From Candidatus Hemicellulosilyticus sp. P3 (GTDB taxonomy: Bacteria; Bacteroidota; Bacteroidia; Bacteroidales; P3): DNA of 64,000 bases. The notes beneath the pieces are model-generated. The model was not told where the DNA came from. It did no database searches and saw only the letters and a program-made list of their open reading frames with translations. The stretch lies in the NCBI GenBank assembly GCA_001543385.1, contig LPNH01000005.1, forward strand, positions 17,680-81,679, read 5' to 3'. Below, in pieces: positions 12,237 through 57,935 of the stretch. Position 1 is the first letter of the stretch. The number at the start of each line of letters is the position of its first letter. The position numbers and the translations under genes are program-made.

Positions 12237-12245
12237 GGCAATCGT

Positions 12246-13211: not shown

Positions 13212-13232
13212 GGGCGAAATGATGACAATAAT

Positions 13233-14174: not shown

Positions 14175-14190
14175 AATTAGCGCGATGAAA

Positions 14191-15570
14191 TCAATTTTCG
14201 TAGGCTGCATCGATGGCCTCGCGGATGGACTCCGACATGGTGGGGTGAGGATGGATACTTCCGGCCACCTGTCTGGCGGTCAAGCCGTTCTGACGGGCCA
14301 CAACGACACCGGCTATCATCTCGGTGACACCCTCGCCGCAGAGATGGCACCCCACGATACGGTCTGTCTGCCTGTCGATAAGCACTTTGACGAACCCGTC
14401 AGTGTTTCCGGCGGCTGTGGCGCGACCGCTGGCACGGAAAAATGTTTTGCCAACACGCAGATCGTAGCCGGCTTCGCGGGCCTTCTTTTCTGTAAGGCCT
14501 ACACTGGCCACCTCGGGAGATATGTAGGTGCAACCCGGCACGTTGTCGTAGTTGATTTTTTCTGCATCGCCGCCAGCCAGATGCTCGACACAGCACACAG
14601 CCTCGACTTCGGCGACATGCGCCAGCGCCGGCCCGTGCACCACGTCGCCGATGGCGTAGTAGCCGGGGACGGAGGTTTGGTAAAAGTCGTCGACAACAAT
14701 TTTGCCGCGCTCGGTGGCGATACCGGTCTCTTCGAGCCCGATGCCTTCAAGATTGGTCACCACGCCCACCGCGCTGAGCACCACGTCGCAGTCGACAACC
14801 ACTTCGGTGTTCTTTTTGGTGTCTTTGACGGTGACATGGCAGATGTCGCCGTCGATGTCGACTTTCTCCACCGACGACGAAGTCATTACTTTCATACCTA
14901 TCTTACGGAAGCTGCGGCTGACAGTTGCAGCTGTCTCCTCGTCTTCGTTGGGCAGAATCTGCGGCATGAATTCGACAAGTGTAACCTGCACCCCGATGCT
15001 CTGATAGAAAAAGGCAAACTCGCTGCCGATGGCACCCGATCCGCACACCAACATGCTTTTAGGCAAGAACGGCAACGTCATGGCCTCACGGTAGCCAATG
15101 ATATGACGGCCGTCCTGCGGCATGGAGGGCATTACCTTGCTGCGGGCGCCGGTGGCGATAATGATATGGTCGGCCTCGTGGCAGACAACACCCTCCGGGC
15201 CCGACACCTCCACACGGTGACCGGGCAGAACCTTGCCTGTGCCCTTCAGCACCTCGACATTGTGTTTCTGCATAAGGAATGCCACGCCTTTGCTCATTGT
15301 TTCAGCCACGCCACGGCTGCGCCGCACCATGGCGTCAAGATCGGCAGCCACGCCGTCGGCTCCGACGCCGTAGTCGGCCGCATGACGCAAGTAAGTGTAG
15401 ACCTGGGCACTCTTGAGCAAAGCCTTGGTGGGAATACACCCCCAGTTGAGGCAGACTCCTCCCAGGTTTTCACGCTCGACAACAGCGGTCTTCAAACCAC
15501 ACTGCGCGCCCCGGACCGCTGCTACGTAGCCTCCCGGACCGCTGCCTATGACGATTAAATCGTATTTCAT
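14191..15570 (-). CDS. lpdA: Dihydrolipoyl dehydrogenase
   Basis: It has the FAD-binding motif GSGPGGY and the redox-active disulfide GGVCLNWGCIPTK. Confidence 0.95.
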   Translation of the reverse strand: MKYDLIVIGSGPGGYVAAVRGAQCGLKTAVVERENLGGVCLNWGCIPTKALLKSAQVYTYLRHAADYGVGADGVAADLDAMVRRSRGVAETMSKGVAFLMQKHNVEVLKGTGKVLPGHRVEVSGPEGVVCHEADHIIIATGARSKVMPSMPQDGRHIIGYREAMTLPFLPKSMLVCGSGAIGSEFAFFYQSIGVQVTLVEFMPQILPNEDEETAATVSRSFRKIGMKVMTSSSVEKVDIDGDICHVTVKDTKKNTEVVVDCDVVLSAVGVVTNLEGIGLEETGIATERGKIVVDDFYQTSVPGYYAIGDVVHGPALAHVAEVEAVCCVEHLAGGDAEKINYDNVPGCTYISPEVASVGLTEKKAREAGYDLRVGKTFFRASGRATAAGNTDGFVKVLIDRQTDRIVGCHLCGEGVTEMIAGVVVARQNGLTARQVAGSIHPHPTMSESIREAIDAAYEN

Positions 15571-15713
15571 AAAGATTATACTATTTATTTAGGTTTACAA
15601 TTCTGCAAAAATACGAAATAAAAGTGAATCGGAAAAGCTCCTGACACGAACGCGCCGATACGTCAACGACGGTAAAAAAGGAGGTGTCGGTGGCTGTTGT
15701 CAACAGAATTTTG

Positions 15714-15721
15714 TACCTTTG
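15714..15721 (+). promoter_or_regulatory. Bacteroidota -7 box (TAnnTTTG)
   Basis: TACCTTTG lies 39 nt upstream of the ATG at 15760. This supports the shorter start with a signal peptide. Confidence 0.4.
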
Positions 15722-15759
15722 CGGCTGGCTTGATGTGGATTCCGATTGATGACGGATTC

Positions 15760-16947
15760 ATGAAAACGGTTTTGCGCATATCACTGTGGGGGTTGCTGGC
15801 AACGGCTTGTTGCGGCAGCGGCTACGCCCAGTATGTACGGCTGAACAGCACGGCAAACCATTCCGCGCTTTATTTCGACCTGAAACACGTGGTCAATTAC
15901 AACATCTATGAGCGCTGGCGATGGGGAGGAGGCCTGTATTGGGTGTCGCCGGACCACACGGCGGGGGCACAATGGCAGGTGCTGCTCTACGGCGCCTTCG
16001 GCACATACGACCGCCGCGCAAAATATGGCGTCACTGTGGCACGGAGCCACCGTGGAGCACACCAGTGGCGCCCCTATGTGGCTTTCTCCGACGATTTGGC
16101 GCAGAATTCGGCGGCATATTTTGACAATATATCCTCTATCTGGCAGGGCGAGAACAATACCCGTTTTGTAGCCTCGCATTTTGTCCGCCAGCAGGCGTTG
16201 CTGGCCGGCGTGTCGGCCCGGTGGGGATTGGCTCAGACGCTGCTTGAGGCACGCTATATGCGCCAACAGGCTCTTTTTGACAACGACCGCCTGCTCTACC
16301 CTGCCCGTGAAGAGATATCGCCCGTCCAAGGACATTTCGCCGAAGTACGCCTGCAAGCCGTCGCCGGAGGTGTCACGGCAGAGCTGCGCGGCAGCACCGC
16401 GTCGGATGTGCCGTCATGGCACTGTCTGCGAGTGCTTCTGCAGTACGACAGAAAGGTGACGTTGGGCAATGGTGGCAGTGTGGACATCTACACCCAAACC
16501 GGTGTGGCCACGTCGACCCATGCCGCCGGCACAGGCCCGTTGCACCGACAGTTTGAATGTTTTGACATCGGCGGCACCTACAACAGTCACTTTTGCTTCC
16601 GCAACAGCCTGCTCACCCTGCCGCCCGACTGTTTTATGGCCGACCGTTTTGTACGCGGAAGTCTGCGGTGTCAGTTTCCGGGCTGCTGGTGGAACAAGCC
16701 GGCCTCGGCGCCGAAACCTTTTGTGCAGACTGTAGCGGCGCTGGGCCGCCACCACAGCACTGAGGATCGGAGTGTCGTGGGCGAGGCGGCGGCAGGCGTG
16801 TCGGGATTGCTGCGATGGAATATGCTTGAGATGGGTTGCGCCGTGGCGTGGCAGATGCTGAACTGTTCGACGGGAGAGACAAGCCTGCGGCCCGACAGCC
16901 AGCACGCACGATGGGCTTTCTTATTTTGCGCCAGCATGCTGATATAA
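15760..16947 (+). CDS. Hypothetical secreted/outer-membrane protein
   Basis: It has a signal-peptide-like N-terminus (MKTVLRISLWGLLATACCGSGYAQ) and is the longest ORF in the region. No family was recognised. Confidence 0.5.
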   Translation: MKTVLRISLWGLLATACCGSGYAQYVRLNSTANHSALYFDLKHVVNYNIYERWRWGGGLYWVSPDHTAGAQWQVLLYGAFGTYDRRAKYGVTVARSHRGAHQWRPYVAFSDDLAQNSAAYFDNISSIWQGENNTRFVASHFVRQQALLAGVSARWGLAQTLLEARYMRQQALFDNDRLLYPAREEISPVQGHFAEVRLQAVAGGVTAELRGSTASDVPSWHCLRVLLQYDRKVTLGNGGSVDIYTQTGVATSTHAAGTGPLHRQFECFDIGGTYNSHFCFRNSLLTLPPDCFMADRFVRGSLRCQFPGCWWNKPASAPKPFVQTVAALGRHHSTEDRSVVGEAAAGVSGLLRWNMLEMGCAVAWQMLNCSTGETSLRPDSQHARWAFLFCASMLI

Positions 16948-16979
16948 TCCAAAAGAAAAAATTACAGAACCACTGATAC

Positions 16980-18443
16980 ATGATGAAACGAATCCTCACA
17001 TTCACCTGCTTGCTTGCCGCCGCATGGGCCGGCCGCGGACAGAGCTATGAGATGGCCTTTGCCATCGACAGGATGCAACAGCCTATGCTTTATGTCGCTC
17101 AGCACTACAGAGACCAGTTTATTGTTCTTGACAGCACCCGACCCGAAAAGGACGGCCGGTATGTCTTTAAGGGTCGGCGGCAGTGGGAACGCGGCATATA
17201 TACCCTGCTTGACAGTTCACGCAAGAAAGCGCTGACCGATTTCACCATTGACGGAAGCCAAAAGTTCACCATCGCCGGCGACTCGACACTCAGCGCAGGC
17301 AGCATCAAGGTGAAGGGGTCGGAAGCCAACTCGCGCATGTTTGAATATATCGCCCGCAACAATGAGGCACGTGTACGGGCCCGCCAGATGGAGAAGGACA
17401 AGAAGTCCTCAGACGCCGCAGTGCGCGAACAGGCTCAGGCCGACCTTGACGCGCTGTCGAAAGAGATGGTGGCCTACGAAGCCTCGATGATTGAACGCTA
17501 CGGCAAGTATCGCTTTTTCGAACTACAACGCATGTTCAGCGGCCCCGCCGTGCCCGACGACGAACGGAACAAGGCAGTCTATTACCGCACGCACTACTGG
17601 GACGGCATCGACCTATCAGACCACAGTCTGATGTATACGCCGGATTTATTCAACAAAATGAATTATTATTTTTTCGGTGTGCTCTATCATGCCGACGCGG
17701 ACACCATCTGCCGCTATGCCGACAGCGTGTTGCAGCGTGTGGAAGGCGACACGGCCATGATGCGCTATTTCATGGATTTCATCATGCCCCGCTACTATCG
17801 CTCGACAAAGAACATCGGATGGGACCAGGTGTGGTGCTATCTGGTGCGCCACTATTATATGGCCGGCAAGTGCGGCTTTGCTTCGAAAGGGGAGCTTAGC
17901 AACAAACGCCAGACGTGCGAGTTTCTGGAGAAGTCGCTTATCGGCGCCCCCGGCATCGAATTGCTGATGGCCGACACCAACCAGTCTGAGAATTCCGCCG
18001 ACTGGATCTCGTCGCACCGGTTCCCGCAGAAGTATGTCATCCTATGGTTCTGGGACCCCGACTGCCACCACTGCAAGGAACAGACCGCAACACTTATCAC
18101 GCTTTACGACTCGCTGAGCGCTGCCGGCAACCGCCCCTTTGAAGTCTATGCCGTAGGCTACGAGAGCGATGTGGCCAAATGGAAGAAGTATGTCAAAGAC
18201 CATCGCCTGCCTTTTGTCAATGTGGGCGGCCCCAACGTCAACGTCGACTACCAGGAGGCTTACAACGTTCACGGCGCACCGACGATGATTATCCTCAACG
18301 CCGACCGGCAGATTATCATGAACAAGACCCTGCCCACCGCCTCTATCCTACCCTTCCTGGAACAGTATGAGAAGCGGCATCCGGAACAAGCCGACAGACC
18401 GCCGTCACGCTGGCAACAGCTCCCCAACGCCCGCTATAGGTAA
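16980..18443 (+). CDS. Thioredoxin-fold (TlpA/AhpC-TSA-like) secreted protein with long N-terminal domain
   Basis: It has a signal peptide and the CxxC motif FWDPDCHHCKEQ in the C-terminal thioredoxin-like domain. Confidence 0.8.
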   Translation: MMKRILTFTCLLAAAWAGRGQSYEMAFAIDRMQQPMLYVAQHYRDQFIVLDSTRPEKDGRYVFKGRRQWERGIYTLLDSSRKKALTDFTIDGSQKFTIAGDSTLSAGSIKVKGSEANSRMFEYIARNNEARVRARQMEKDKKSSDAAVREQAQADLDALSKEMVAYEASMIERYGKYRFFELQRMFSGPAVPDDERNKAVYYRTHYWDGIDLSDHSLMYTPDLFNKMNYYFFGVLYHADADTICRYADSVLQRVEGDTAMMRYFMDFIMPRYYRSTKNIGWDQVWCYLVRHYYMAGKCGFASKGELSNKRQTCEFLEKSLIGAPGIELLMADTNQSENSADWISSHRFPQKYVILWFWDPDCHHCKEQTATLITLYDSLSAAGNRPFEVYAVGYESDVAKWKKYVKDHRLPFVNVGGPNVNVDYQEAYNVHGAPTMIILNADRQIIMNKTLPTASILPFLEQYEKRHPEQADRPPSRWQQLPNARYR

Positions 18444-18520
18444 AGGCAACCTCTAAAAATTCCACGTAAGAACAATAGCTGATAACAACAGAAAGCAATT
18501 TTTAGAGAATGCCTAAACAA

Positions 18521-18560
18521 ACAGACGGAGGGCTGCGCCGTGGCGCAGCCCTCCGTCTGT
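18521..18560. terminator. Bidirectional terminator hairpin between convergent genes
   Basis: A ~18-bp GC-rich inverted repeat acagacggagggctgcgcc / ggcgcagccctccgtctgt. Confidence 0.6.
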
Positions 18561-18581
18561 TGTCATCCATCCCGCCTATCG

Positions 18582-19391
18582 CTACCACCGGAAACCAATG
18601 GTCGCCACAAGACTGATTCTATTGATTTTATCATTCCGATACCAGACAAAAGGATTGAGTTTGGACTTGCCAAAATCATCCGAATTGGAAGTGAAGTCGT
18701 CCAGCGACGAATCCGAGCCAAACAACGGCAACATATAAACAAGGCGGCCTTGCACGAAGAAATTCTCATTGAAACGATATTGTATACCGGCCAAAACGTC
18801 GACACCGAAGTCAAAGCTGAATGGAATGCCCGTGTCTTCACTGGCATAGGCAGACATGGCAAGTTCCGACGCCGACAAGACTGTGGCGTAGCCCAACCCG
18901 CTCACTTCCTCAGATATTTTGCCTTTGAAACGGATATCTTCATAGACACCCACGCCCGCCAAAGCCTGGAACTTCTTTTTCCGCTTCATCTTCTTGATGT
19001 CAAATGCAAAGTAGATACCCTCCATCATGTTCAATGTTGTGCTTTTCACCTTGTAGAGCACATTATTGCTGCTGTTCTCGCCGAAGGACACCGACCAATG
19101 GGTCGAGGTGATCTGGAAGTCGGTGTTAAAACCGAACGCGGTTTTCTTGTTGAGATCCTTTTCCATGCCCCAATGCAAACCCACGGAAGGGGAAACGGCC
19201 ATTTTCACATCGTCGACAATAGTCCCGGCCAGGGGACCGACGAATTTGGCGTTATAGAACGAAACATTCATTCCCGCATCAAGACCCATACGTTGGTCGC
19301 CTTTCCAGAAAACCAGCCATTGCGCATCGGCCAACTGCGTCATGGCGACAAAGGCCAACAGGAAATAAATTTTTTTCATCATAGTGTTCAT
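18582..19391 (-). CDS. Outer-membrane beta-barrel protein (porin-family-like)
   Basis: It has a signal peptide (MKKIYFLLAFVAMTQLADAQ), an alternating hydrophobic pattern, and a C-terminal aromatic residue (..IGFRW). Confidence 0.65.
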   Translation of the reverse strand: MNTMMKKIYFLLAFVAMTQLADAQWLVFWKGDQRMGLDAGMNVSFYNAKFVGPLAGTIVDDVKMAVSPSVGLHWGMEKDLNKKTAFGFNTDFQITSTHWSVSFGENSSNNVLYKVKSTTLNMMEGIYFAFDIKKMKRKKKFQALAGVGVYEDIRFKGKISEEVSGLGYATVLSASELAMSAYASEDTGIPFSFDFGVDVLAGIQYRFNENFFVQGRLVYMLPLFGSDSSLDDFTSNSDDFGKSKLNPFVWYRNDKINRISLVATIGFRW

Positions 19392-31311: not shown

Positions 31312-31364
31312 TAGTGTAAGGAGTATCGCTTTAATTCGTAAAACCATTAAATCCTTAAACTGTT

Positions 31365-31814
31365 ATGAAAGAAAAAACCAATAAATTACTCACCTGGGCA
31401 CTTCTCGGTCTTGCGGTGCTGGCGGCGGTGTTCACCATCGTCTTCGCCCTTGACATCGACAAGTACGCAGGTTTGTACGACGTGGCTTACTGGATGCTCA
31501 TTATCATGGTGCTCGTTTCAATTTGCGCCATCGTCGTATTTGGACTCAAGAAACTGTTCGGCCGATTTGCGACGCAGAAAGGCTATCTTAAGAAATTCCT
31601 GTTGGTGTGCGCAGCCGTGGCCGTGGCCGTGGTGGCAGCCCTGCTGCTCTCCAGCGGCAGCGATGTCAGCAATGTGCTGCTTGAGAAGAACAATCTCACC
31701 ACAGGAACCTCCAAATGGATCGGCGCCGCCTGCATTCTGGTCTATATCTTGGTCATTGCAGCCGCCTGTTCTATCGTATATGTAGAAGTTGCCAAACTGG
31801 CTAAAAAGAAATAA
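31365..31814 (+). CDS. Hypothetical membrane protein (ExbB-ExbD intervening gene)
   Basis: Four predicted TM helices. It sits between exbB and exbD, as is common in Bacteroidota. Confidence 0.6.
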   Translation: MKEKTNKLLTWALLGLAVLAAVFTIVFALDIDKYAGLYDVAYWMLIIMVLVSICAIVVFGLKKLFGRFATQKGYLKKFLLVCAAVAVAVVAALLLSSGSDVSNVLLEKNNLTTGTSKWIGAACILVYILVIAAACSIVYVEVAKLAKKK

Positions 31815-48572: not shown

Positions 48573-49583
48573 ATGAAAGCAGCCATTTTAAACCAATACG
48601 ACAAACATGCGATTCATGTCGACGTGCAAGACATTTCCCTACCCAAGCCTGCTGCCGACGAGGTGCTGGTAAAGGTGCTCACCGCCGGAGTCAATCCGCT
48701 GGACAACATGATTGCCCATGGCGAGGTGAGACTTATTGTCCCCTATCGACTGCCCTTGGTGATGGGCAACGAGTTGGTGGGTATCGTGGAGCGCTGTGGC
48801 CGAAATTCCACGCGCTTCGCCGTAGGTGATCGGGTCTACTGCCGTATGCCACTGTCCCGACCTGGAGCTTTTGCCGAATACGCCGCCGTGGCAGAAGGAG
48901 CATTGGCGCGCGTGCCCGACCACTTGAACGACGAGGAGGCCGCGGCGGTGCCCTTGACGGCACTGACTGCTTTGCAGGCTTTTGACCTGCTGCAAGCCAA
49001 AGAAGGCGACCGGCTGTTCATATCAGGCGGCACAGGCAGCTTTGGCGCCAGGGCCATACCGCTGGCAAAAGAACGGGGATTGCACGTCATCACCAACGGC
49101 AATGCAGAGAACAGTGAACGTGTGCTACGATTAGGCGCCGAGCGGTTTATCGACTACAAGAAAGAAGACTACACCGCGGTGCTGAAAGATGTAGACTGCG
49201 TGATTGACACACTGGGTGACAGCGAACTGCCACGCGAGTTCGGCATATTGAAACAGGGCGGACACTTGGTGTCGCTGCGCGGGCTGCCTAACGGCGAATT
49301 TGCCAACCGCACGAGGATGCCGTGGCAGAAGCGGATATTATTCGGTGCGGCCGGCCGAAAATACGACAAAATGGCTGCCCGTCGAGGACAGCACTATCAC
49401 TTCATATTCGTTCATGAAGATGGCGTTGCCCTACAACAAGCCAGCGACATCTTCTCCGCCAAACACATTGAAGCCGCTGTGGACGGTGTGTTTCCCTTGG
49501 CCGAGGTGAAAGCCGCCATGCAGAAAGTAGCCTCCGGCGGCAGTCGTGGCAAGACAGTGCTCCGCATCGCCCCTACCGCCTGA
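48573..49583 (+). CDS. Zinc-independent MDR-family NAD(P)H:quinone oxidoreductase-like protein
   Basis: MKAAILNQY..., the GVNPLD pattern and the GGTGSFG nucleotide-binding motif are present. The start is set at ATG 48573. Confidence 0.87.
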   Translation: MKAAILNQYDKHAIHVDVQDISLPKPAADEVLVKVLTAGVNPLDNMIAHGEVRLIVPYRLPLVMGNELVGIVERCGRNSTRFAVGDRVYCRMPLSRPGAFAEYAAVAEGALARVPDHLNDEEAAAVPLTALTALQAFDLLQAKEGDRLFISGGTGSFGARAIPLAKERGLHVITNGNAENSERVLRLGAERFIDYKKEDYTAVLKDVDCVIDTLGDSELPREFGILKQGGHLVSLRGLPNGEFANRTRMPWQKRILFGAAGRKYDKMAARRGQHYHFIFVHEDGVALQQASDIFSAKHIEAAVDGVFPLAEVKAAMQKVASGGSRGKTVLRIAPTA

Positions 49584-49868
49584 ACGCTTGACAGTTGTAT
49601 CATTGCCGTCATCGAGTATAACAACATGAAATTGAGCCCTGGTGACGGCACATATATTTCCGGGTGAAATTCATTTTAATTCAACCTTCACCCTCGAAAA
49701 CCATCAAGCCTCTGCTCTCTTAGAAACAGACTTTTGGCACTTTTGCTTCGATTTGTTGCATTCACTTGTTGAATCTACCTCCACCATCTACTGAAAAATA
49801 AATTTTGCAGTTCTACACATTATTCGTACTTTTATAGTTTAACATTCTCTATAATAGAAAACGATAAT

Positions 49869-49913
49869 ATATTAACTCTTAAACATTTCATCAATTAAAC
49901 TCTTATAGCAAAA
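49869..49913 (+). repeat. Direct repeat DR-L (degenerate copy of the nifJ leader and start codon)
   Basis: atattaactcttaaacatttcatcaattaaactcttatagcaaaa matches 53199-53242 at 38 of 45 aligned positions. The nifJ ATG is ATA in this copy. Confidence 0.65.
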
Positions 49914-49914
49914 T

Positions 49915-50003
49915 ATGAAGAACCATCCAGTGGATGTATCAATAGAAAACGCGGAAATCAAAAAATAGGAAACTGCTGAAATAAATATAATCAAAATACC
50001 GAT
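49915..50003 (+). repeat. Leader unit copy 1 (54-nt mini-ORF MKNHPVDVSIENAEIKK plus core AAATAGGAAACTGCTGAAATAA)
   Basis: It aligns with 50544-50630 and 50643-50721. The core at 49963-49984 carries TAG, TGA and TAA, one in each frame. Confidence 0.6.
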
Positions 50004-50630
50004 ATGGCAAAGGAAACACAAATAACAAGCCCCAAGTCCGTTGAAACGCGAGATATTGAGACTCGTTTGATTGTGCTGCGCGGACAGAAAGTGCTTATCG
50101 ACCGTGATGTGGCGGAGTTGTATGGCGTGGAAACAAAGAGGGTAAATGAGGCAGTGAAGAACAACCCCGACAAATTCCCTGAAGGGTACTTCTTTACTCT
50201 GCAAGGTGTTGAAAAGCAGCAACTGGTCGAAAATTTCGACCACTTCAAGACCTTGAAGAACTCCCCCGTCGAGCCTCGCACTTTCACCGAGAAAGGTCTT
50301 TACATGTTAGCCACCATACTGAAAAGCAAGCGTGCTACAGCAGTAACTATTGCCATCATCGAGACCTTTGCCAAAGTACGGGAGCTGAAGCGCGAGTTGG
50401 TGGAGTTGCACAAAGAGACCGACAAGGCGATGCAAGAGAAGAAGATGCACCACTTCGGCGAAGTGCTGACCGACATAGTGATGCCCGACCTCGAAACCTC
50501 CGAGACGGAATCATCGTTAGAAATCAACTTCCTCATCGGCAACATGAAGAAATGCCAGTGGCATTTCGATAGCGGAGCGGAGAACAAAGAACACACCGTA
50601 AAACGAGTAAGAAAAGGCGATAGCAAATGA
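50004..50630 (+). CDS. ORF6N-domain (KilA-N-related DNA-binding) protein
   Basis: IVLRGQKVLIDRDVAELYGVETKRVNEAVKNNPDKFPEGYFFTL is the typical ORF6N pattern. The last 28 codons (from 50544) are an in-frame copy of the leader unit. Confidence 0.8.
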   Translation: MAKETQITSPKSVETRDIETRLIVLRGQKVLIDRDVAELYGVETKRVNEAVKNNPDKFPEGYFFTLQGVEKQQLVENFDHFKTLKNSPVEPRTFTEKGLYMLATILKSKRATAVTIAIIETFAKVRELKRELVELHKETDKAMQEKKMHHFGEVLTDIVMPDLETSETESSLEINFLIGNMKKCQWHFDSGAENKEHTVKRVRKGDSK

Positions 50631-50642
50631 CCGCGCTGGAAC

Positions 50643-50721
50643 GTGAAGAATGTCCTATGGACATTCGATAGCGTAACGGAGAACAAAACGAAATAGGAAA
50701 CGGCTGAAATAATAATACGAA
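50643..50721 (+). repeat. Leader unit copy 2b (54-nt mini-ORF VKNVLWTFDSVTENKTK plus core AAATAGGAAACGGCTGAAATAA)
   Basis: It shows high identity to 49915-49992. The core is at 50691-50712, 9 nt before ATG 50722. Confidence 0.6.
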
Positions 50722-51594
50722 ATGGAGAAAGTTCAGATATTTCAAGATAAGAAAGTCCGCACCCATTGGGATGCCGAGAAGGAGGAATGGTACTTCTCGG
50801 TGGTGGATGTTGTCAGAGTGTTGACGGATTCTGCCAACCCGACAGACTATCTCAAAAAGATGCGCAAACGTGATTCTGAACTTGCTACGTTCATGGGGAC
50901 AAATTGTCCCCAGGTAGATATGATGACGGAGACTGGGAAGCGGAGAAAGACGCTCGCCGCTGACAGTAAGGCTGTTTTCCGCATCATTCAATCAATTCCT
51001 TCGCCCAAAGCCGAGCCATTCAAGCAATGGATGGCGCAGGTGGGAGCTGAACGGCTGGATGAGATAGCCGATCCTGAGAAAGCTATCGCTCGTGGTGCTG
51101 ACTTCTATCGTGCCAAGGGCTACAGCGAAGGGTGGATTAACCAACGGCTACAGTCTATTGAGATGCGCAAGGAGTTGACCGACGAGTGGAAAGCCCGCGA
51201 TATCGATCAGGAACGCGACTATGCCATACTGACTAACGAAATGACCCGCGCATGGAGCGGCCTCACGGTGCGCGACTACAAAGACGTAAAAGGCTTGAGG
51301 AAAGAGAACCTTCGTGACAATATGACCAATCTTGAACTGGTGCTCAACATGCTTGCCGAAGTTACCACCACAGCCATCTCTCGCAGCCGTCAGCCAGAGA
51401 CCTTTGCAGAAAGCCGGAATATAGCCATCGAGGGGGGCAATGTGGCCGGCTCCGCCCGCCGCGAGATTGAGCTGCGCACCGGCCAACCCGTAGTCAGCCC
51501 TCTCAATGCCACCGACAAACTCGCCCTCGACACCTCTATAGAAGACGTAAAACAAATAGAAACAAATGGCCGTGCTGGAAGAAGTGGGAAATAG
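50722..51594 (+). CDS. Bro-N domain protein (DinD/antirepressor-like)
   Basis: The N-terminus is IFQDKKVRTHWDAEKEEWYFSVVDVVRVLTDS (Bro-N). The C-terminal region PSPKAEPFKQWMAQVGAERLDEI...GWINQR resembles DinD-type proteins. Its stop codon is the TAG of leader core copy 3. Confidence 0.78.
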   Translation: MEKVQIFQDKKVRTHWDAEKEEWYFSVVDVVRVLTDSANPTDYLKKMRKRDSELATFMGTNCPQVDMMTETGKRRKTLAADSKAVFRIIQSIPSPKAEPFKQWMAQVGAERLDEIADPEKAIARGADFYRAKGYSEGWINQRLQSIEMRKELTDEWKARDIDQERDYAILTNEMTRAWSGLTVRDYKDVKGLRKENLRDNMTNLELVLNMLAEVTTTAISRSRQPETFAESRNIAIEGGNVAGSARREIELRTGQPVVSPLNATDKLALDTSIEDVKQIETNGRAGRSGK

Positions 51595-51610
51595 GAAACT
51601 GATGAAATAA
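51589..51610 (+). repeat. Leader core copy 3 (AAATAGGAAACTGATGAAATAA)
   Basis: A 20/22 match to the other cores, 17 nt before ATG 51628. The upstream flank GTGCTGGAAGAAGTG resembles GCGCTGGAACGTGAAG at 50631-50646. Confidence 0.55.
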
Positions 51611-51627
51611 ACAAAAATATACAATCT

Positions 51628-52119
51628 ATGAAACTTAAGAAAATCATATTACTTACTTTGATGCCTCTCGTATTTGCATCATGTGTAACTCTTCAACCTG
51701 TTCGTGTAACGAGAAATACATCTTTGGACAATTACACATATTTTTACATAACACCTACTGAAACCAAGACTGGTTCTACAGGAGGTGTATATGGTAATGG
51801 ATATGGCGTTTATGGTTCCTCCCTAAGCAAGAGTACAAATCCAGCAGATATCATTTCCGGCTATCTCATCAAAAGAGGAATGGTTCGATTACCCGAAGTG
51901 AGAAGTGATTTAGCTGACAAAACCATGATTATTAACTATGGAGAAACAGGACGACGCAGTACTGGACTCGGTTACACTATTGAAATCACACTTCAGATAC
52001 TTTCTGCAAAAACAAGTGAAGTCGTTTGTGTTGTAGCAGGCGAAGGTCAAGGTGAAACAGAAGCTGACGATATTAGAATAGCCATTAACCGTTGTCTTGA
52101 AGAAATGTATAAGCAATAA
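51628..52119 (+). CDS. Hypothetical lipoprotein
   Basis: It has a lipoprotein signal with lipobox (LMPLVFASC). No family was recognised. Confidence 0.7.
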   Translation: MKLKKIILLTLMPLVFASCVTLQPVRVTRNTSLDNYTYFYITPTETKTGSTGGVYGNGYGVYGSSLSKSTNPADIISGYLIKRGMVRLPEVRSDLADKTMIINYGETGRRSTGLGYTIEITLQILSAKTSEVVCVVAGEGQGETEADDIRIAINRCLEEMYKQ

Positions 52120-52125
52120 ACAACA

Positions 52126-53175
52126 ATGAGTCTTATTGACGACTACATATTAGAGAGGACATGCACCTATAAAGGAGAAACTTATAAAGTGCGGGATAAT
52201 GGTGCCGTGTACCGTCAACCAAGGCCGGAGGGTAGACTTCGGAAGGATGACGGCAAGTGGACGTTTGGAGAGAAGAACACAACGAATGGATATATGTACA
52301 TTGGTCAACACCGTGTGCATATTATCGTAGCAACAGCTTTCTATGGTGAGAACGATTCCAAAGTTTATGTCGTTGACCATATAGACACCAACCGTTGTAA
52401 TAATCGCGCAGAGAATTTGCGTTGGCTAACTCGTTTGGAAAACGCTTTGCTCAATGAAGACACCTGTAGAAAAATAACATACTTGTGTGGCGGTGACATC
52501 ATGAAGTTCATCAATAACCCATCCTGTTTGCACGACCTTGCCCAAGACCCTGACATCAGTTGGATGCGTACTGTGACAGCAGAAGAGGCAAAGACTGCTT
52601 ATGCCAGAGTGCAATCAATGAGAATCCAACAGCCAAGAAACATTCATTCAGAGCTGCACATAGAAAACGAAGATTTAAAGCGCAAGGAGCAAGCAGAAGC
52701 AATGGAGTGGTACCGCACACAGAACAATTGGCGTTTTACTGCACCAAAGCAACCCATATATAGTACACCTGATCCAGTTTTCACAAAAGCGGCATATCCA
52801 GAGACCGCTTTGCAGAAAGATTGGAAAACTCCAACAGAGTTCATATGTTGTCCCATAGAATCAACAGAAACTCCATTGCAAGATTATTACAACAATCTTA
52901 CAATTGGCAAACTCTTTTCACGGAACAAATACACAGAACATACAGTATTTGATTTTGCACTAATGGACAATGATAAGATATTAATCATTGCAACAAAAGA
53001 CTCAAATCCGAATGCAATAAAACACTTTGGCCTATTGAAGGTATATCATTCCGGCATTCAGTTTATTCATGAAAGCATAAGCACGTACTTTGAAGAAAAT
53101 GGTGTTAGAAAGTATTTCAATATTGAACAAGGGTTAGATTGGAATGGACCTAATAGTATTGACGATTATTGTTAA
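52126..53175 (+). CDS. HNH_3-type endonuclease domain protein with uncharacterised C-terminal extension
   Basis: HRVHIIVATAFYGENDSKVYVVDHIDTNRCNNRAENLRWLTRLEN matches the phage/homing HNH_3 pattern (H..v....VdHid.n..nN...NLrw.t..eN). Confidence 0.75.
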   Translation: MSLIDDYILERTCTYKGETYKVRDNGAVYRQPRPEGRLRKDDGKWTFGEKNTTNGYMYIGQHRVHIIVATAFYGENDSKVYVVDHIDTNRCNNRAENLRWLTRLENALLNEDTCRKITYLCGGDIMKFINNPSCLHDLAQDPDISWMRTVTAEEAKTAYARVQSMRIQQPRNIHSELHIENEDLKRKEQAEAMEWYRTQNNWRFTAPKQPIYSTPDPVFTKAAYPETALQKDWKTPTEFICCPIESTETPLQDYYNNLTIGKLFSRNKYTEHTVFDFALMDNDKILIIATKDSNPNAIKHFGLLKVYHSGIQFIHESISTYFEENGVRKYFNIEQGLDWNGPNSIDDYC

Positions 53176-53198
53176 ACAAAAATAGATAACTCACATAA

Positions 53199-53242
53199 AT
53201 ATTAATCCTTAAACTTTTATTAATTAAACTATTATGGCAAAA
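53199..53242 (+). repeat. Direct repeat DR-R (functional nifJ leader and first three codons)
   Basis: atattaatccttaaacttttattaattaaactattATGgcaaaa is the partner of 49869-49913. Confidence 0.65.
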
Positions 53243-56200
53243 GAAAAAAAGTTTATGACTTGTGACGGCAACTGCGCTGCGGCGCACGTTGCGTACATGT
53301 TCAGCGAGGTAGCAGCTATCTACCCCATCACCCCGTCCAGCCCTATGGCCGAGTATATCGACGAGTGGGCCGCCGGCGGTCGTAAGAACCTCTTCGGCGA
53401 GACCGTGAAGGTCGTCGAGATGCAGAGCGAGGCCGGTGCCGCCGGCGCCGTGCACGGCTCGTTGCAGGCCGGTGCGCTGACCACCACCTACACCGCTTCG
53501 CAGGGTCTGCTGCTGATGATCCCCAACATGTACAAGATCGCCGGCGAGCTGCTGCCCGGCGTGTTCCACGTGAGCGCCCGCGCCCTGGCCGCCCAGGCCC
53601 TCTCCATCTTCGGCGACCACGCCGACGTGATGAGCGCCCGCCAGACCGGCTTCGCCCTGCTGGCCGAGAGCTCGGTGCAGGAGGTGATGGACCTCGCCCC
53701 TGTGGCCCACCTCGCCGCCCTCAGCGGCCGCGTGCCGTTCCTCAACTTCTTCGACGGCTTCCGCACCAGCCACGAGATCCAGAAAATCGAGGCCTGGGAT
53801 ATGGAAGACCTGCGTCCGCTGGTGGACCAGAAGGCCCTGAAGGCTTTCCGCGAGAACGCCCTGAACCCCGAGCACAACGTGACCCGCGGCACCGCCCAGA
53901 ACAGCGATGTCTACTTCCAGACCCGCGAGCTGCAGAACAAGTACTACGACGCCCTGCCCGACATCGTGGCCAAGTATATGGCTGAGATCAGCAAGCTGAC
54001 GGGCCGCCAGTACGCCCCCTTCACCTACTATGGTGCCAAGGATGCCGAGCACGTCATCGTGGCTATGGGTTCGGTGACCGAGACCATCAAGACCGTGGTC
54101 GACTACCTCAACGCCCAGGGCAAGAAGACCGGCTGCGTGACCGTTCACCTGTACCGCCCCTTCAGCGTGAAGCACCTGATGGAGGCTATGCCCAAGAGCC
54201 TGATGGAGCACGTGAAGACCATCACCGTCCTCGACCGCACCAAGGAGCCCGGCGCCAACGGCGACCCGCTGTATATGGACATCGTCGAGGCCTTCAAGGA
54301 CTGCCCCTACAAGCCCACCATTCTCGGCGGCCGCTACGGTCTGTCGAGCAAGGACACCACCCCCGCCCAGATTATCAGCGTCTTCAACAACGCCGAGGGC
54401 GAGAAGAAGAACCAATTCACCATCGGCATCGTGGACGACGTGACCTTCCGCTCGCTGCCCCTGCTGCCCGAAATCAGCATCCTGCCCAAGGGCACCTTCG
54501 AGGCCCGCTTCTACGGCCTCGGCGCCGACGGCACGGTGGGTGCCAACAAGAACAGCATCAAGATTATCGGCGACAACACCGACAAGTACAGCCAGGCCTA
54601 CTTCGACTACGACTCGAAGAAGAGCGGCGGCTACACCTGCTCGCACCTGCGCTTCGGCGACAACCCCCTGCCGGCACCCTACCTGGTCGGCACGCCCGAC
54701 TTCGTGGCCGTCCACGTGCCCAGCTACCTGCGCAAATATGACTGCCTGCGCGGCCTGAAGGACAACGGCACCTTCCTCTACAACAGCCCCTGGACCGTCG
54801 AGGAGACCAAGGCCCAGCTGCCCGACTTCGTGAAGAAGTACCTGGCGCTGCACCACATCACGATGTACATCATCGACGCCACCAAGATTGCCGCTGAAAT
54901 CGGTCTCGGCAACCGCACCAACACCATCCTCCAAAGCGCCTTCTTCAAGATCAGCGAGGTGATTCCCTACGACCTCGCCGTCGAGCAGATGAAGAAATTC
55001 ATCGTCAAGAGCTACGGCCGCAAGGGTGAGGACGTGGTCAACAAGAACTACCAGGCCGTGGACCGCGGCGGCGAGATCGTGAAGATCGACATCCCCGCAG
55101 AGTGGGCCAACCTGCCTTGCAGCACCGACTTCGCCGTCGAGAAACACGAGGGCGACCCCGAGTTCATCGCCAAGGTGATGCGCCCGATGGTGGCCCAGAC
55201 CGGCAACGACCTGCCCGTGTCGGCATTCCTCGGCTACGAGGACGGCACCTTCCCCGCCGGCACCACCGCCTACGAGAAGCGCGGCGTGGCCACCGTCGTC
55301 CCCGAGTGGATCCCCGCCAACTGCATCCAGTGCAACCAGTGCTCGCTGGTGTGCCCCCACGCCGCCATCCGCCCCTGCGTGATGACCGACGAGGAGATGA
55401 AGAATGCCCCCGAGTCGATGAAGGCCATCGACATGAAGATGCCCAAGGAACTGGCCGGTATGCACTTCCGTATGCAGGTCAGCGCTATGGACTGCACCGG
55501 CTGCGGCAACTGCGCCGATGTTTGCCCCGCCAAGGAGAAAGCCCTCGTGATGAAACCCTTCGAGAGCCAGCTCCACGAGGCAGCCAACTGGGACTACGCC
55601 CAGAAGATGGTCACCTACAAGGACAACCTCATCGACAAGAAGGCCAACGTCAAGAACAGCCAGTTCGCACAGCCCCTGTTCGAGTTCAGCGGCGCCTGCG
55701 CCGGTTGCGGCGAGACCCCGTACCTCAAGTGCATCACCCAGCTCTTCGGCGAGCAGATGATGGTGGCCAACGCCACGGGCTGTTCCTCCATCTACGGCGG
55801 CTCGGCTCCTGCCACCCCCTATTGCAAGAACTACCGCAGCGGCTTCGGTCCCGCCTGGGCCAACTCGCTGTTTGAAGACAACGCCGAGTTCGGTCTCGGC
55901 ATGGCCACCGCCACCCGCCAGATGCGCGACCGCGTGGAGCGCATTATGAAGGAAGGCCTCGGCTGCGACTGCTGCAGCGCCGAAATCAAGGCCCTCTTCA
56001 CCGAGTGGATCGAGAACCGCGAGAACACCCTCAAGACCAAGGAAATCGCCGACAAGCTCATCCCGCTGATGGAAGCCTGCGGCTGCGACATCTGCAAGCA
56101 GCTCCTCGAACTCCGCCACAGCCTCGTCAAGAAGAGCCAGTGGATCTTCGGCGGCGACGGCTGGGGCTATGACATCGGATTCGGCGGTCTGGACCACGTG

Positions 56201-56782
56201 CTGGCCAGCGGCGAGGATGTCAACGTCGTCGTCGTCGACACCGAGGTGTACTCCAACACCGGCGGACAGAGCTCGAAGGCCACCCCGGCCGGTGCTGTCG
56301 CCAAGTTCGCCACCAGCGGCAAGAAGATCCGCAAGAAAGACCTCGGTATGATCGCCAAGAGCTACGGCTACGTCTATGTGGCGCAGGTGGCTATGGGCGC
56401 CAGCCAGGCCCAGTACTTCAACGTCATCAAGGAGGCCGAGGCCTACCACGGACCGTCGCTCATCATCTGCTACGCACCCTGCATCAACCACGGTATCAAG
56501 ATCGGTATGGGCCGCACGCAGAACGAGGAGAAGAAGGCCGTCGAGTGCGGCTACTGGCACCTCTGGCACTACAACCCTGCTGAGGAAGAGGCCGGCAAAA
56601 ATGGCTTCCACCTCGACTCGAAGGAGCCCGACTGGAGCAAGTTCCGCGACTTCATTATGGGCGAGGTCCGCTACAACTCGCTGATGAAGACCTTCCCCCA
56701 GGAGGCCGAAGAGCTCTTCGTCGCCACGGAGCGCAACGCCAAGCTGCGCTATGAGGGCTACAAGAAACTCTCCGAGATGTAA
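53234..56782 (+). CDS. nifJ: Pyruvate:ferredoxin (flavodoxin) oxidoreductase
   Basis: It is 1182 aa. It has an N-terminal CDGNCAAAHVAY, two ferredoxin-type clusters (CIQCNQCSLVCPH, CTGCGNCADVCP), and the TPP-binding GGDGWGYDIGFGGLDHV. Confidence 0.98.
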   Translation: MAKEKKFMTCDGNCAAAHVAYMFSEVAAIYPITPSSPMAEYIDEWAAGGRKNLFGETVKVVEMQSEAGAAGAVHGSLQAGALTTTYTASQGLLLMIPNMYKIAGELLPGVFHVSARALAAQALSIFGDHADVMSARQTGFALLAESSVQEVMDLAPVAHLAALSGRVPFLNFFDGFRTSHEIQKIEAWDMEDLRPLVDQKALKAFRENALNPEHNVTRGTAQNSDVYFQTRELQNKYYDALPDIVAKYMAEISKLTGRQYAPFTYYGAKDAEHVIVAMGSVTETIKTVVDYLNAQGKKTGCVTVHLYRPFSVKHLMEAMPKSLMEHVKTITVLDRTKEPGANGDPLYMDIVEAFKDCPYKPTILGGRYGLSSKDTTPAQIISVFNNAEGEKKNQFTIGIVDDVTFRSLPLLPEISILPKGTFEARFYGLGADGTVGANKNSIKIIGDNTDKYSQAYFDYDSKKSGGYTCSHLRFGDNPLPAPYLVGTPDFVAVHVPSYLRKYDCLRGLKDNGTFLYNSPWTVEETKAQLPDFVKKYLALHHITMYIIDATKIAAEIGLGNRTNTILQSAFFKISEVIPYDLAVEQMKKFIVKSYGRKGEDVVNKNYQAVDRGGEIVKIDIPAEWANLPCSTDFAVEKHEGDPEFIAKVMRPMVAQTGNDLPVSAFLGYEDGTFPAGTTAYEKRGVATVVPEWIPANCIQCNQCSLVCPHAAIRPCVMTDEEMKNAPESMKAIDMKMPKELAGMHFRMQVSAMDCTGCGNCADVCPAKEKALVMKPFESQLHEAANWDYAQKMVTYKDNLIDKKANVKNSQFAQPLFEFSGACAGCGETPYLKCITQLFGEQMMVANATGCSSIYGGSAPATPYCKNYRSGFGPAWANSLFEDNAEFGLGMATATRQMRDRVERIMKEGLGCDCCSAEIKALFTEWIENRENTLKTKEIADKLIPLMEACGCDICKQLLELRHSLVKKSQWIFGGDGWGYDIGFGGLDHVLASGEDVNVVVVDTEVYSNTGGQSSKATPAGAVAKFATSGKKIRKKDLGMIAKSYGYVYVAQVAMGASQAQYFNVIKEAEAYHGPSLIICYAPCINHGIKIGMGRTQNEEKKAVECGYWHLWHYNPAEEEAGKNGFHLDSKEPDWSKFRDFIMGEVRYNSLMKTFPQEAEELFVATERNAKLRYEGYKKLSEM

Positions 56783-56803
56783 TCTAATATAGATTGCAAA
56801 CCC

Positions 56804-56835
56804 AAGTTGTGGAGGTCGAGAGGCCTCCACAACTT
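56804..56835 (+). terminator. Terminator hairpin after nifJ
   Basis: A 12-bp stem aagttgtggagg / cctccacaactt lies 22 nt after the stop codon. Confidence 0.6.
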
Positions 56836-56852
56836 CAAAGAAAGAATATAAC

Positions 56853-57935
56853 ATGACACTACTTAATAATAAATGCACCCCAATTCAACTGGATTTGTTC
56901 CAATTGCAAAAACAATATCCAGATACTATTGTCAAGAAAAACGACCTTGATGATAGTTATGATGATTTAGATTTGTCTAAAAATGTATTGGTGTGCAACG
57001 TCAAGAAAGATAATGTAGAACATTTCTTGGACGGCTCTGCCAAGATTTATTATACCGGCTTACGTTTTCCTTCATCTGTAGCTCTCAATAAGCTATACTA
57101 TTTTATCCCCTATATCGGCAAGAAATGCGACCTTGACTACTGCGGCATCCGAGACTTGTACATTATCAAAATTGCCCGTATCGGTTCACGTCGAGAGGGT
57201 GAACTTGATAATGACCCCAACGATTTACGCTTGGTTTTTGAGTTAAAGTTTGTAAAACATTTATTTAATGAATATAAACCAATAAAATTACAGATTTACC
57301 AGACATTCACCGATACAACACTTGAGCAGTTACTAGAAAATCAGAAAACAAAGACCAAACTATTGCCCAATCATTTAACATATATAAGCCTTTTTAGTAG
57401 TGCAGGTGTGGGGTGTTATGGCTTCAAGCAAGAAAACTATTCGTGCATTGCCACCGTTGAACTCATTGAGCGTCGTCTCAACGTACAGAAGTACAATCAT
57501 AAATGCACGTTCAATAGCGGATATATCTGTGGTGACATAACCCTTGCCGAAACACAGAACCGAGTGTTTCAAGAATTACAAATGTGGAGGCGAACCAGTG
57601 GGTTAACCGAGGTTGATGTGCTGATAGCAACGCCACCTTGTCAAGGAATGTCTGTTGCTAACCACAAGAAAGGCGATGAACTAAAACGCAACTCCCTCGT
57701 AGTAGAATCCATTAAACTTATACGAGATATTAACCCGCGTTTTTTTATTTTCGAGAACGTACCTGCTTTTCTTAAATCCATCTGTACAGATATTGATGGT
57801 ATTGACAAACCTATTGGAGAGGCCATAGAATTAGATCTTTTAATTTCCCCCATCCAACTGAAAACCGCCCCCATCCCTAAAATCTTCAAAAAATCAGCTT
57901 TCCACGTGTTACTTTTTCACTGTTTTTGCAACTAA
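56853..57935 (+). pseudogene. Truncated DNA (cytosine-5)-methyltransferase with an uncharacterised ~170-aa N-terminal domain
   Basis: Motif I (LFSSAGVGCYGF), motif IV (TPPCQGMS) and motif VI (FIFENVPAF) are present. Motif VIII, the TRD, and motifs IX/X are absent. The reading frame runs into repeat R1 and stops inside it. Confidence 0.7.

Follow-up and report, generated by a model that had tools for sequence, protein, structure and literature searches.

As a rule, an integration hotspot or defence island is described as the interval that two conserved core genes enclose. SXT/R391, a large conjugative element with a tyrosine integrase and a fixed att core, integrates into the 5' end of prfC. 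Displacement of the C-terminal part of Rhs proteins has been proposed to proceed via recombination with circular intermediates (Jackson et al. 2009, PMC2935791). For the effector-immunity arrays of Vibrio cholerae's type VI secretion system (T6SS), homology-facilitated illegitimate recombination was proposed by authors who also noted the parallel to integrons and that no integrase is present (Kirchberger et al. 2017, PMC5361080). Here, we analysed a stretch of 64,000 nt from Candidatus Hemicellulosilyticus sp. P3 (contig LPNH01000005.1, positions 17,680 to 81,679; hereafter the window), in which four accessory genes lie directly 5' of nifJ, the gene of a pyruvate:ferredoxin/flavodoxin oxidoreductase of 1182 aa (53234..56782; POR_N, PFOR_II, POR, EKR, Fer4 and TPP_enzyme_C domains). 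All features assigned between 49804 and 56834 are on the + strand. The arrangement works like displacement arrays and like core-gene-flanked defence hotspots, and it is not a member of the Rhs, contact-dependent inhibition or T6SS families, of the integrons or of the integrase-borne islands. Literature searches yielded no account of nifJ-leader relics or of the present hotspot. We consider it moderately probable that the region just 5' of nifJ is a recombination hotspot, where accessory cassettes pile up via nifJ-anchored recombination.

The original prediction had described the segment as an AT-rich island of 3.3 kb, bounded by imperfect direct repeats that duplicate the nifJ leader and start codon. 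The repeat was reproduced with 38 of 45 positions identical between 49869-49913 and 53199-53242 and one 1-nt gap. Local alignment stretched the match to 49853-49913 and 53180-53242, with 51 of 59 aligned pairs identical, five gap positions and a score of 59. In a shuffle control of the right copy versus the whole window (n = 300), a mean score of 29.1 (standard deviation 3.2) and a maximum of 40 were obtained, and none of the shuffles reached 59. The second-best real match to the right copy in the window had a score of 32 (31331-31376). The 16-mer ATATTAAYYCTTAAAC, with up to two mismatches allowed, was found at two sites only in the 64 kb, which are both repeat copies. Thus, the 45-mer is not a common upstream motif in the window; a common motif had been named as a finding that would speak against an insertion.

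The right copy (DR-R, 53180..53242) is the working nifJ leader together with codons 1-3; it contains the ATG of nifJ and the clade-conserved core TTAATCCTTAAAC. The left copy (DR-L, 49853..49913) comprises the same leader and codons 1-3 and has ATA at the start position (49905-49907), as predicted. The similarity of the two copies crosses the start codon into codons 2-3. DR-L departs from the clade consensus at the conserved core (AACTC where the consensus is AATCC), but it has retained AATTAAACT, an extension specific to the lineage that is also present in the working leaders of L117, a related locus, and of the window. The longest exact run between the two copies of the window is 9 nt. Hence, DR-L represents a decayed nifJ leader and start, kept as a relic, and the two copies form an old repeat pair. 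A chance resemblance of two AT-rich upstream regions would fit the base composition of both copies and the weak score of DR-L against a profile of the relatives' working leaders (E 4.6). This explanation is refuted by the alignment score, which exceeds that of every shuffle, by the similarity that continues through the start codon into codons 2-3, and by homologous relics of relatives that share up to 58 exact nt and have nifJ coding sequence attached.

Such relics were sought in loci of relatives (L-numbers; mostly metagenome contigs), in each case with the leader and start of the respective locus. Relic leaders or 5' ends were identified in four other arrays, L117, L004, L036 and L120-L125. 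The relic of L117 is located 5' of a KilA-N gene and comprises 29 exact nt that end approximately 10 nt before the ATG, while that of L004 comprises 33 exact nt, ends approximately 4 nt before the ATG and is joined to a truncated ORF6N gene. In L036, relic L2 consists of the leader and approximately 125 nt of decayed nifJ ending in codon 41-42; relic L1 is older and more decayed and retains the leader core only. In L120-L125, each cassette is preceded by a relic unit composed of the leader, ATGGCAAAA, a hairpin element termed D2 (see below), and nifJ from codon 7 to codon 11, 13 or 44. The relic junctions thus fall on at least seven positions (approximately -10 and -4, and codons 3, 11, 13, 41 and 44). 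Because independent relics end at different positions, no fixed crossover core at one target position is common to the independent insertions. The decay of the relics rises with the distance from nifJ: in L120, unit U3, which is nearest to nifJ, has 33 exact nt in common with the working leader, a stretch of 58 exact nt is common to U2 and U3, and U1 is the most degraded; L1 of L036 is likewise more degraded than L2. An inverted half-site GTTTAAGGATT after unit 2 of L120 was considered as a transposon-like inverted repeat and was dropped, as it is better explained as a degenerate leader fragment.

A comparison of L003 with L036 provides what appears from the alignments to be a cross-species before/after pair for the L036 insertion. 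L003 is uninterrupted, with an EVE-HNH gene, 12 nt and nifJ, whereas the order in L036 is EVE-HNH, relic leader, truncated nifJ, three genes, leader and nifJ. The 3' end of the EVE-HNH gene of L003 and the following leader are collinear with L036 5837-6115 (EVE-HNH and relic leader), and the 5' end of L003 nifJ can be aligned with the L036 relic (81%) as well as with the working copy of L036. The 3' end of nifJ is affected as well. L036 carries a displaced nifJ 3' fragment of 1.38 kb (17583-18956, 90.7% identical to 11292-12665) behind an inserted trio of HATPase, MTaX1 and C5-methylase genes (region 12704-18972), and L120 and L121 are identical upstream and diverge right after the nifJ terminator (after 12660). 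Therefore, both ends of nifJ are to be regarded as hotspots. In L004, the region of the nifJ stop is duplicated (12667-12790); D2 is present there in one copy, as is a stretch similar to nifJ codons 14-19.

Vestigial anchor ends beside displaced modules, with the intact copy at the gene body, were thus found in the window, in units U1-U3 of L120 and in L036, L117 and L004. This is the organization of the Rhs/CdiA arrays, in which a conserved gene serves as anchor, a module brings a new gene end, the old end becomes vestigial and repeated events give arrays without a dedicated integrase. In the Rhs/CdiA systems, however, the 3' toxin tip is exchanged and the payload is toxin/immunity, whereas nifJ, a housekeeping metabolic gene, provides mainly its 5' leader and start as the anchor; its product is unchanged and unrelated accessory genes are placed upstream, although a 3' case also exists in L036. 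Instead of a toxin or secretion gene with toxin/immunity payload, anchor and payload are a pyruvate:ferredoxin oxidoreductase gene and ORF6N, Bro-N, lipoprotein and HNH genes, respectively. With the T6SS arrays the locus would share a one-sided homologous anchor combined with an illegitimate joint, and older modules that are pushed away from the anchor. There, the anchor is the conserved upstream region of the effector-immunity module and immunity genes are displaced, and neither leader/start relics nor a hairpin element are involved.

The gene content had been given as ORF6N, Bro-N, lipoprotein and HNH endonuclease genes without an integrase; this list was confirmed, and the Pfam scan showed no integrase domain in any of the four. 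The first gene encodes an ORF6N-domain protein (50004..50630; Pfam 5.1e-28, PHROGs anti-repressor) that resembles phage anti-repressors, the second a Bro-N domain protein (50722..51594; Pfam, PHROGs anti-repressor-like). They are followed by the gene of a predicted lipoprotein of 163 aa (51628..52119), with signal and lipobox (LVFASC) read from the translation, and by that of an HNH_3 endonuclease of 349 aa (52126..53175; Pfam 1e-15). The lipoprotein gave no Pfam, PADLOC or PHROGs match and is 97% identical in L120. The description as AT-rich held for the segment as a whole (43.6% GC versus 52.3% for the window and 62.6% for nifJ), and not for each of its genes, since Bro-N has 52.5% and ORF6N 48.5% GC.

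Close relatives were reached via the HNH_3 protein (2794 relatives). All HNH_3 proteins with 94-89% identity (L117, L120-L125, L126-L131) are encoded in the same module, in which the 163-aa lipoprotein gene and the HNH_3 gene are followed after 52-58 nt by nifJ. The relatives with approximately 95-97% identical nifJ have in common a block that starts at 51563 and contains a 45-nt linker, the lipoprotein gene, the HNH_3 gene, the leader and nifJ. The DNA homology of L002, L117, L120 and L126 to the window begins at 51563-51565, inside this linker, and ends at approximately 56846-56850, with 88-95% identity over 51563-56850. A separate block, 49960-50548, is 86% identical to L126 6814-7404, where it represents the second ORF6N gene of that locus. 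The Bro-N cassette is missing in L126, in which the linker and the lipoprotein gene come straight after ORF6N. Farther upstream, a KilA-N gene was found in L117, RmuC, RhuM and Bro-N genes together with an AAA_15 gene and a 200-aa gene in L120-L125, and a GDSL lipase gene with two ORF6N genes in L126-L131. At least six contigs, assembled from different samples, have the arrangement of L120. Nucleotide identity of nifJ was 96.8% to L120 and 94.8% to L002, whereas the outer flanks have nothing in common.

The left edges of these blocks lie at or next to a second repeat, D1 (AAATAGGAAACTGCTGAAATAA...), which was detected in a repeat search. It comprises 28 nt (AAATAGGAAACnGnTGAAATAA...) that start at 49963, 50691 and 51589, just 5' of three of the four genes, and was obtained in none of 100 shuffles. 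D1a (49963..49990) lies next to 49960, where the homology to the ORF6N cassette of L126 begins, D1b (50691..50718) precedes Bro-N, and D1c (51563..51616) forms the 3' tail of unrelated cassette genes and the left edge of the conserved block, as given by the start of the BLAST alignments. As a separate observation, cassette genes that are unrelated to each other (Bro-N, KilA-N, ORF6N and the 200-aa gene) terminate in the linker of approximately 45 nt ATGRCCGYGCTGGAAGAAGTGGGAAATAGGAAACTGMTGAAATAA, which can be read as a mini-ORF (ORF, open reading frame) of 14 codons, MAVLEEVGNRKLMK; copies are located at L002 3515-3580, L117 7428-7499, L120 7436-7505, L126 7433-7505 and L014 1260-1317. A linker profile search gave matches in nifJ-upstream arrays only.

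The segment is judged to be composite because 51563-56850 and 49960-50548 are two distinct blocks in the relatives, which have other cassettes between them. The alignments thus resolve the predicted island into at least three modules on conserved linkers (D1-ORF6N, D1-Bro-N and D1-lipoprotein-HNH_3) rather than one element, and the relatives, which keep separate blocks, do not behave as if the whole were present or absent as a unit. Of the original insertion reading, the part that DNA was inserted and that an intact leader and nifJ were regenerated stood, while a unitary site-specific or homing island of 3.3 kb did not. The proposed comparison with related genomes showed that the content at this position varies; an empty site in the same species was not recovered.

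In other species the slot before nifJ is occupied by an EVE-HNH gene (L003), by KilA-N and HNH_repeat-HNH genes (L014), by RhuM and ORF6N genes (L031), by restriction-modification genes (L004, L038) or by the gene of an AIPR protein (L034), and in some species by ordinary genes such as EF-Ts (L021) and CvpA (L037). No homology was found among the pre-nifJ proteins of L036 (354 aa), L002 (295 aa), L004 (542 aa) and L038 (330 aa), and among pre-nifJ proteins only the EVE-HNH proteins of L003 and L036 match each other. PADLOC assigned ORF6N and RhuM to PDC-S05 (6.7e-77 and 3.2e-127, respectively), Bro-N to PDC-S13 (2.5e-123) and the pair of AAA_15 and 200-aa genes of L120 to PDC-M29A/B; the PDC families are candidate defence families only. 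The lipoprotein and HNH_3 received no defence assignment. The cassettes are mostly candidate defence genes, and all are co-oriented with nifJ. The modules differ between close relatives and the anchor is conserved. As in integration hotspots, variable content rich in candidate defence genes is found at a fixed place by a core gene, often without recognizable mobile machinery; unlike in these, the nifJ side alone is conserved, the site of insertion falls within the leader or 5' end of nifJ itself, and a second leader copy remains as the scar.

The direct repeats around co-oriented accessory DNA of lower GC content could also represent attL and attR of a classical genomic island that used an att site in the nifJ leader or start, with a recombinase acting in trans or since lost. 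Regeneration of the target gene, as by SXT/R391 at the prfC 5' end, and a perfect 14-nt palindrome in the leader of the clade would be in line with such an island. Tyrosine and serine recombinases were, however, absent from Pfam scans of the island ORFs and their neighbours in the window, L002, L004, L036, L117, L120 and L126, and an integrase was not found in the five arrays or within 8 kb on either side of the island of the window. Transposase domains were likewise absent from the arrays. The junctions differ in each independent case, the repeats measure between approximately 35 nt and 1.38 kb, breakpoints common to relatives lie inside the composite segment, and the two copies of the window share at most the 9 exact nt given above. 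A site-specific recombinase is therefore unlikely, and a classical island, very improbable on these grounds, has largely been refuted already by the variable junctions. With SXT/R391 the locus shares the 5'-end insertion, the supply of a replacement 5' end and the functional target gene, but not the integrase, the att core or the conjugative size.

The palindrome, CTTAAACGTTTAAG, was observed in the working leaders of the relatives (L120 9084-9107, L002 5135-5160, L036 8975-9000, L003 8969-8990) whereas the leader of the window (53199-53233) no longer has it, owing to substitutions and the deletion of 1 nt. Its role might be that of an operator or of a hairpin in the 5' untranslated region.

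Given that the repeat recurs at variable junctions, that the structure is composite and that integrases are lacking, we infer a recombination route in which the incoming DNA would consist of one or more cassettes, the leader and the 5' part of nifJ. Its right end would be joined by homologous recombination in the very conserved leader or in nifJ; the latter is a good anchor because it is 95-97% nucleotide-identical between contigs with unrelated flanks. The left end might be closed by a non-homologous or microhomology joint in the resident leader or first codons (homology-facilitated illegitimate recombination), or a circle might enter via a single crossover in the leader. By either route, the resident leader and first codons would stay on the left as a relic, and an intact leader and nifJ would be regenerated on the right. 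The Rhs and T6SS arrays cited above are published precedents for entry via circles and for illegitimate joining, respectively. Repeated events would give arrays, with relics that are more decayed farther from nifJ. The short linkers (relic leader units and the 45-nt D1 tail) would then provide portable homology for swapping or deleting single cassettes, which, with relic leaders and D1 linkers as direct repeats, could loop out or be exchanged. The Bro-N cassette, located between D1b and D1c and missing in L126, fits such a linker-mediated exchange.

Several points weigh against nifJ-anchored recombination. No import tract was detected, as the sliding nifJ identity versus L002, L120 and L036 showed neither a 5' gradient nor a mosaic. 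A cassette presence/absence pair with both flanks identical was not recovered, nor was the same-species empty site: a metagenome scan with the protein of the ADH gene in the left flank gave nothing closer than 73% identity and no linkage to nifJ, the sole other contig with a 99% identical ADH gene stops 94 nt past the gene, so that no empty site is readable, and exact-protein look-ups of nifJ and ORF6N yielded, beyond the source data, one further contig with an island 100% identical to that of the window. Every relic unit in the window and in L120 has D2 right after codon 3, which points to one duplicated ancestral unit or to a role of D2 over independent illegitimate joints. All three close relatives with a relic (the window, L117 and L120) have the HNH_3 gene as the last gene of the repeat-bounded block, at the regenerated leader; a nuclease trigger is therefore a real, if unlikely, alternative that would be compatible with the same recombination outcome. 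A repeat is visible only where the joint falls inside the leader or 5' end, which biases detection, and the relatives are mostly represented by metagenome contigs. Finally, the route presupposes that linear or circular DNA would enter by natural competence or otherwise.

The position of the HNH_3 gene suggests an alternative in which the nuclease itself drives a homing-like spread. HNH_3 would cut nifJ alleles free of HNH_3 near the start, and donor repair would copy the block in; with only the nifJ side homologous, the other end would be sealed non-homologously and the leader thereby duplicated. HNH_3 belongs to a homing-endonuclease family and, as judged from its sequence, has an intact catalytic motif: residues H65, D84, H85, N93, N97 and N106 of the HNH motif are invariant in 28 relatives. 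The protein matches I-HmuI weakly (1u3e, E 0.0024) and in PADLOC only the generic homing-endonuclease model (HEase, 4e-11). A C-terminal domain (residues 220-349; AlphaFold2 pLDDT >90) is conserved in the 28 relatives and had no match in the PDB by sequence, and Foldseek versus the PDB gave nothing at E <= 0.001. The short distance of 52-58 nt to the nifJ ATG, found in the window as in L117, L120-L125 and L126-L131, the lipoprotein-HNH_3 pair that always terminates the repeat-bounded block in the window, L117 and L120, and the confinement of all detected joints to the range from approximately 10 nt upstream of the ATG to codon 44 (approximately +130) speak for such a spread, as do the two other HNH types in the same slot, EVE-HNH (L003, L036) and HNH_repeat-HNH (L014). 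The clustering of the joints is, however, partly an ascertainment effect, and EVE-HNH proteins are usually modification-dependent restriction enzymes, not homing enzymes. The HNH_3 gene is linked to nifJ in all relatives with at least 89% identity, whereas three family members with approximately 50% identity were found in unrelated contexts away from nifJ; the idea of a nifJ-specific homing family was weakened by these three. Furthermore, the arrays of L004, L002 and L031 show relics or variable cassettes without an HNH gene beside nifJ, the nifJ 3' displacement in L036 took place without HNH_3, and the 5' end of nifJ has no co-conversion gradient. Nuclease-driven spread is thus regarded as unlikely, if still a serious candidate. 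Including HNH_3 of the window, three HNH-type nucleases occupy the same pre-leader slot, with EVE-HNH at L003 8194-8988 and L036 5309-6100 and HNH_repeat-HNH at L014 1374-2039.

The third repeat of the locus, D2, is a hairpin element of approximately 50 nt. D2a (49912..49964; covariance model 57.9 bits), a degenerate copy, forms the left junction after codon 3 of the relic, and its junction ATGGCAAAA/TATGAAGAA was also found in three relic units of L120. D2b (50541..50591; 71.4 bits, hairpin -10.1 kcal/mol) is inserted in frame (+42 nt) in the part encoding the ORF6N C-terminus and is missing in the orthologous sequences of L126 and L004. D2c (50640..50690; 63 bits, hairpin -15.2 kcal/mol, z-score -4.1) lies in the linker after the ORF6N stop and is missing in the homologous linker 51563-51616 and in L126. 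Alignment of nine distinct copies revealed a stem of 8-9 bp (nine pairs in the alignment), a loop of 3 nt and then the conserved GATAGCGRAGCGGAGAAC. Compensatory changes occurred in five of the nine pairs with 89.7% of the cells paired, values reached by none of 500 shuffles, and the hairpin was the minimum-energy fold in each copy tested. Further copies are located at L120 3410-3462, 4412-4464, 5454-5506 and 5538-5588, L036 7066-7118 and L004 12701-12753. D2 is also in frame (+42 nt) in Bro-N of L036 relative to Bro-N of the window, and further sites are the D1 linker, relic nifJ fragments and, in L004, the position right after the nifJ stop. All copies are in nifJ orientation and in nifJ flanks only. 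The covariance model detected no further copy in 858 kb of related loci, and the D2 core and the leader core gave no match versus viral contigs. In the 64-kb window D2 has three copies, all in the island, and none lies outside nifJ flanks in the 858 kb; within this range it is not a repeat with many dispersed copies.

Rickettsia palindromic elements are palindromic, 100-150 nt long and in frame in protein-coding genes, with the ORF kept. D2 resembles them as a short palindrome in frame in genes with an intact ORF, and differs in its length of approximately 50 nt, in a stem that varies by compensatory changes and in its occurrence, as observed, in nifJ-flanking arrays only instead of dispersal over the genome. 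For D2 itself, three identities are conceivable, namely a miniature mobile element, a recombination site and an RNA element.

If D2 were a recombination site, alone or with the relic leader or D1, an unidentified enzyme might use it to insert single cassettes 3' of the nifJ promoter in an integron-like manner. The compensated stem, the exact location of D2 at the left junction in the window and in each relic unit of L120, the uniform array orientation of its copies in nifJ flanks only, and single, co-oriented genes with conserved 3' linkers all argue for this. As in integrons, mostly single-gene, co-oriented and presumably promoterless cassettes lie 3' of one candidate promoter region and are bounded by short conserved or structured elements. 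No integron integrase or other recombinase was found nearby, though, and no IntI and no attI/attC architecture: attC sites are bipartite, whereas D2 is one simple hairpin, and the boundaries are D1 linkers, relic leaders of a housekeeping gene or a single 8-9 bp hairpin, several of them without any hairpin. D2 is also found at places where no cassettes meet, namely in frame within intact ORF6N and Bro-N genes and behind the nifJ stop, and the relics of L117, the left copy of L004 and L2 of L036 have no D2 at the junction. An integron-like system of this kind is accordingly regarded as improbable. So is a related reading, in which leader copies and D2 serve as portable recombination sites of a recombinase-free or unknown-enzyme integron analogue; single defence cassettes would leave as circles and come back in between nifJ and its strong promoter, and the adjacent HNH nuclease could make the initiating break.

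A candidate Bacteroidetes-type promoter (TTTG, a 19-nt spacer and TACTTTTA; 9 of 10 specified positions) was located at 49804..49834, 18 nt before the relic, and no other + strand match exists in the interval from the stop of the ADH gene to the ATG of nifJ. Its -7 box TACTTTTA aligns with a perfect TAATTTTG box at the same place 5' of the L117 relic. The -33/-7 motif has 17 matches in 64 kb, so that a single match here is close to chance expectation. No terminator-like site was found on the + strand inside the island; the sigma-70 promoter scan, which is unsuitable for Bacteroidetes, was used for terminators only. Given this lack of an internal terminator-like site, the cassettes may be co-transcribed with nifJ, and they probably ride on transcription from upstream of the relic. 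A hairpin 3' of the nifJ stop (56806..56834), read from the sequence, is a probable terminator; the homology of the relatives stops soon after it.

Instead of being a scar, the duplicated leader might have been kept for expression signals of the cassettes, such as mRNA stability, translation or regulation. A leader unit 5' of each cassette in L120 and a similar motif 5' of another gene of the window (31340-31376) would suit this functional re-use. It is hardly likely, since the relic start is ATA both in the window and in L124, a relic ATG opens only a short ORF with a stop 30-100 nt before the cassette start, the relic of the window is degraded at core positions that are conserved in working leaders, and the ORF6N start is 90 nt past the relic, behind D2 and D1. 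The ATA in L124 belongs to unit U2 (at approximately 240) and arose independently of that in the window; translation from relic starts may have been selected against. The sequence 31340-31376, ATTAAATCCTTAAACTGTTATGAAAGAAAAAAC, contains the exact 11-mer of the nifJ-leader core followed by a similar A-rich start, 5' of a 149-aa ORF that sits 3' of a gene whose C-terminal translation looks ExbB/MotA-like by eye. It may represent a shared regulatory or translation motif or chance, as its score of 32 falls in the shuffle range.

Rfam identified no family in 49000-54000 at E <= 1. Directly after nifJ, an ORF at 56853-57935 has the appearance of a C5 cytosine methylase that is mosaic or truncated: similarity to the C-terminal part of the methylase of L036 was seen for residues 13-161, whereas for residues 175-328 the match to methylase profiles is limited to their N-terminal third to half.

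The 5' leader of nifJ, a highly conserved and highly expressed gene, thus appears to be a place at which accessory genes and candidate defence genes have docked repeatedly in rumen Bacteroidales that are uncultured. Docking apparently takes place without mobile-element machinery, and the stack of relic leaders orders the acquisitions in time. The mechanism of displacement arrays would thereby be extended beyond polymorphic toxin loci. If the phenomenon is general, conserved housekeeping genes would be landmarks for defence-gene hotspots in metagenomes, and relic leaders would be markers of homology-anchored gene capture. The apparent placement of foreign genes between an essential gene and its promoter raises the question of how nifJ expression persists.

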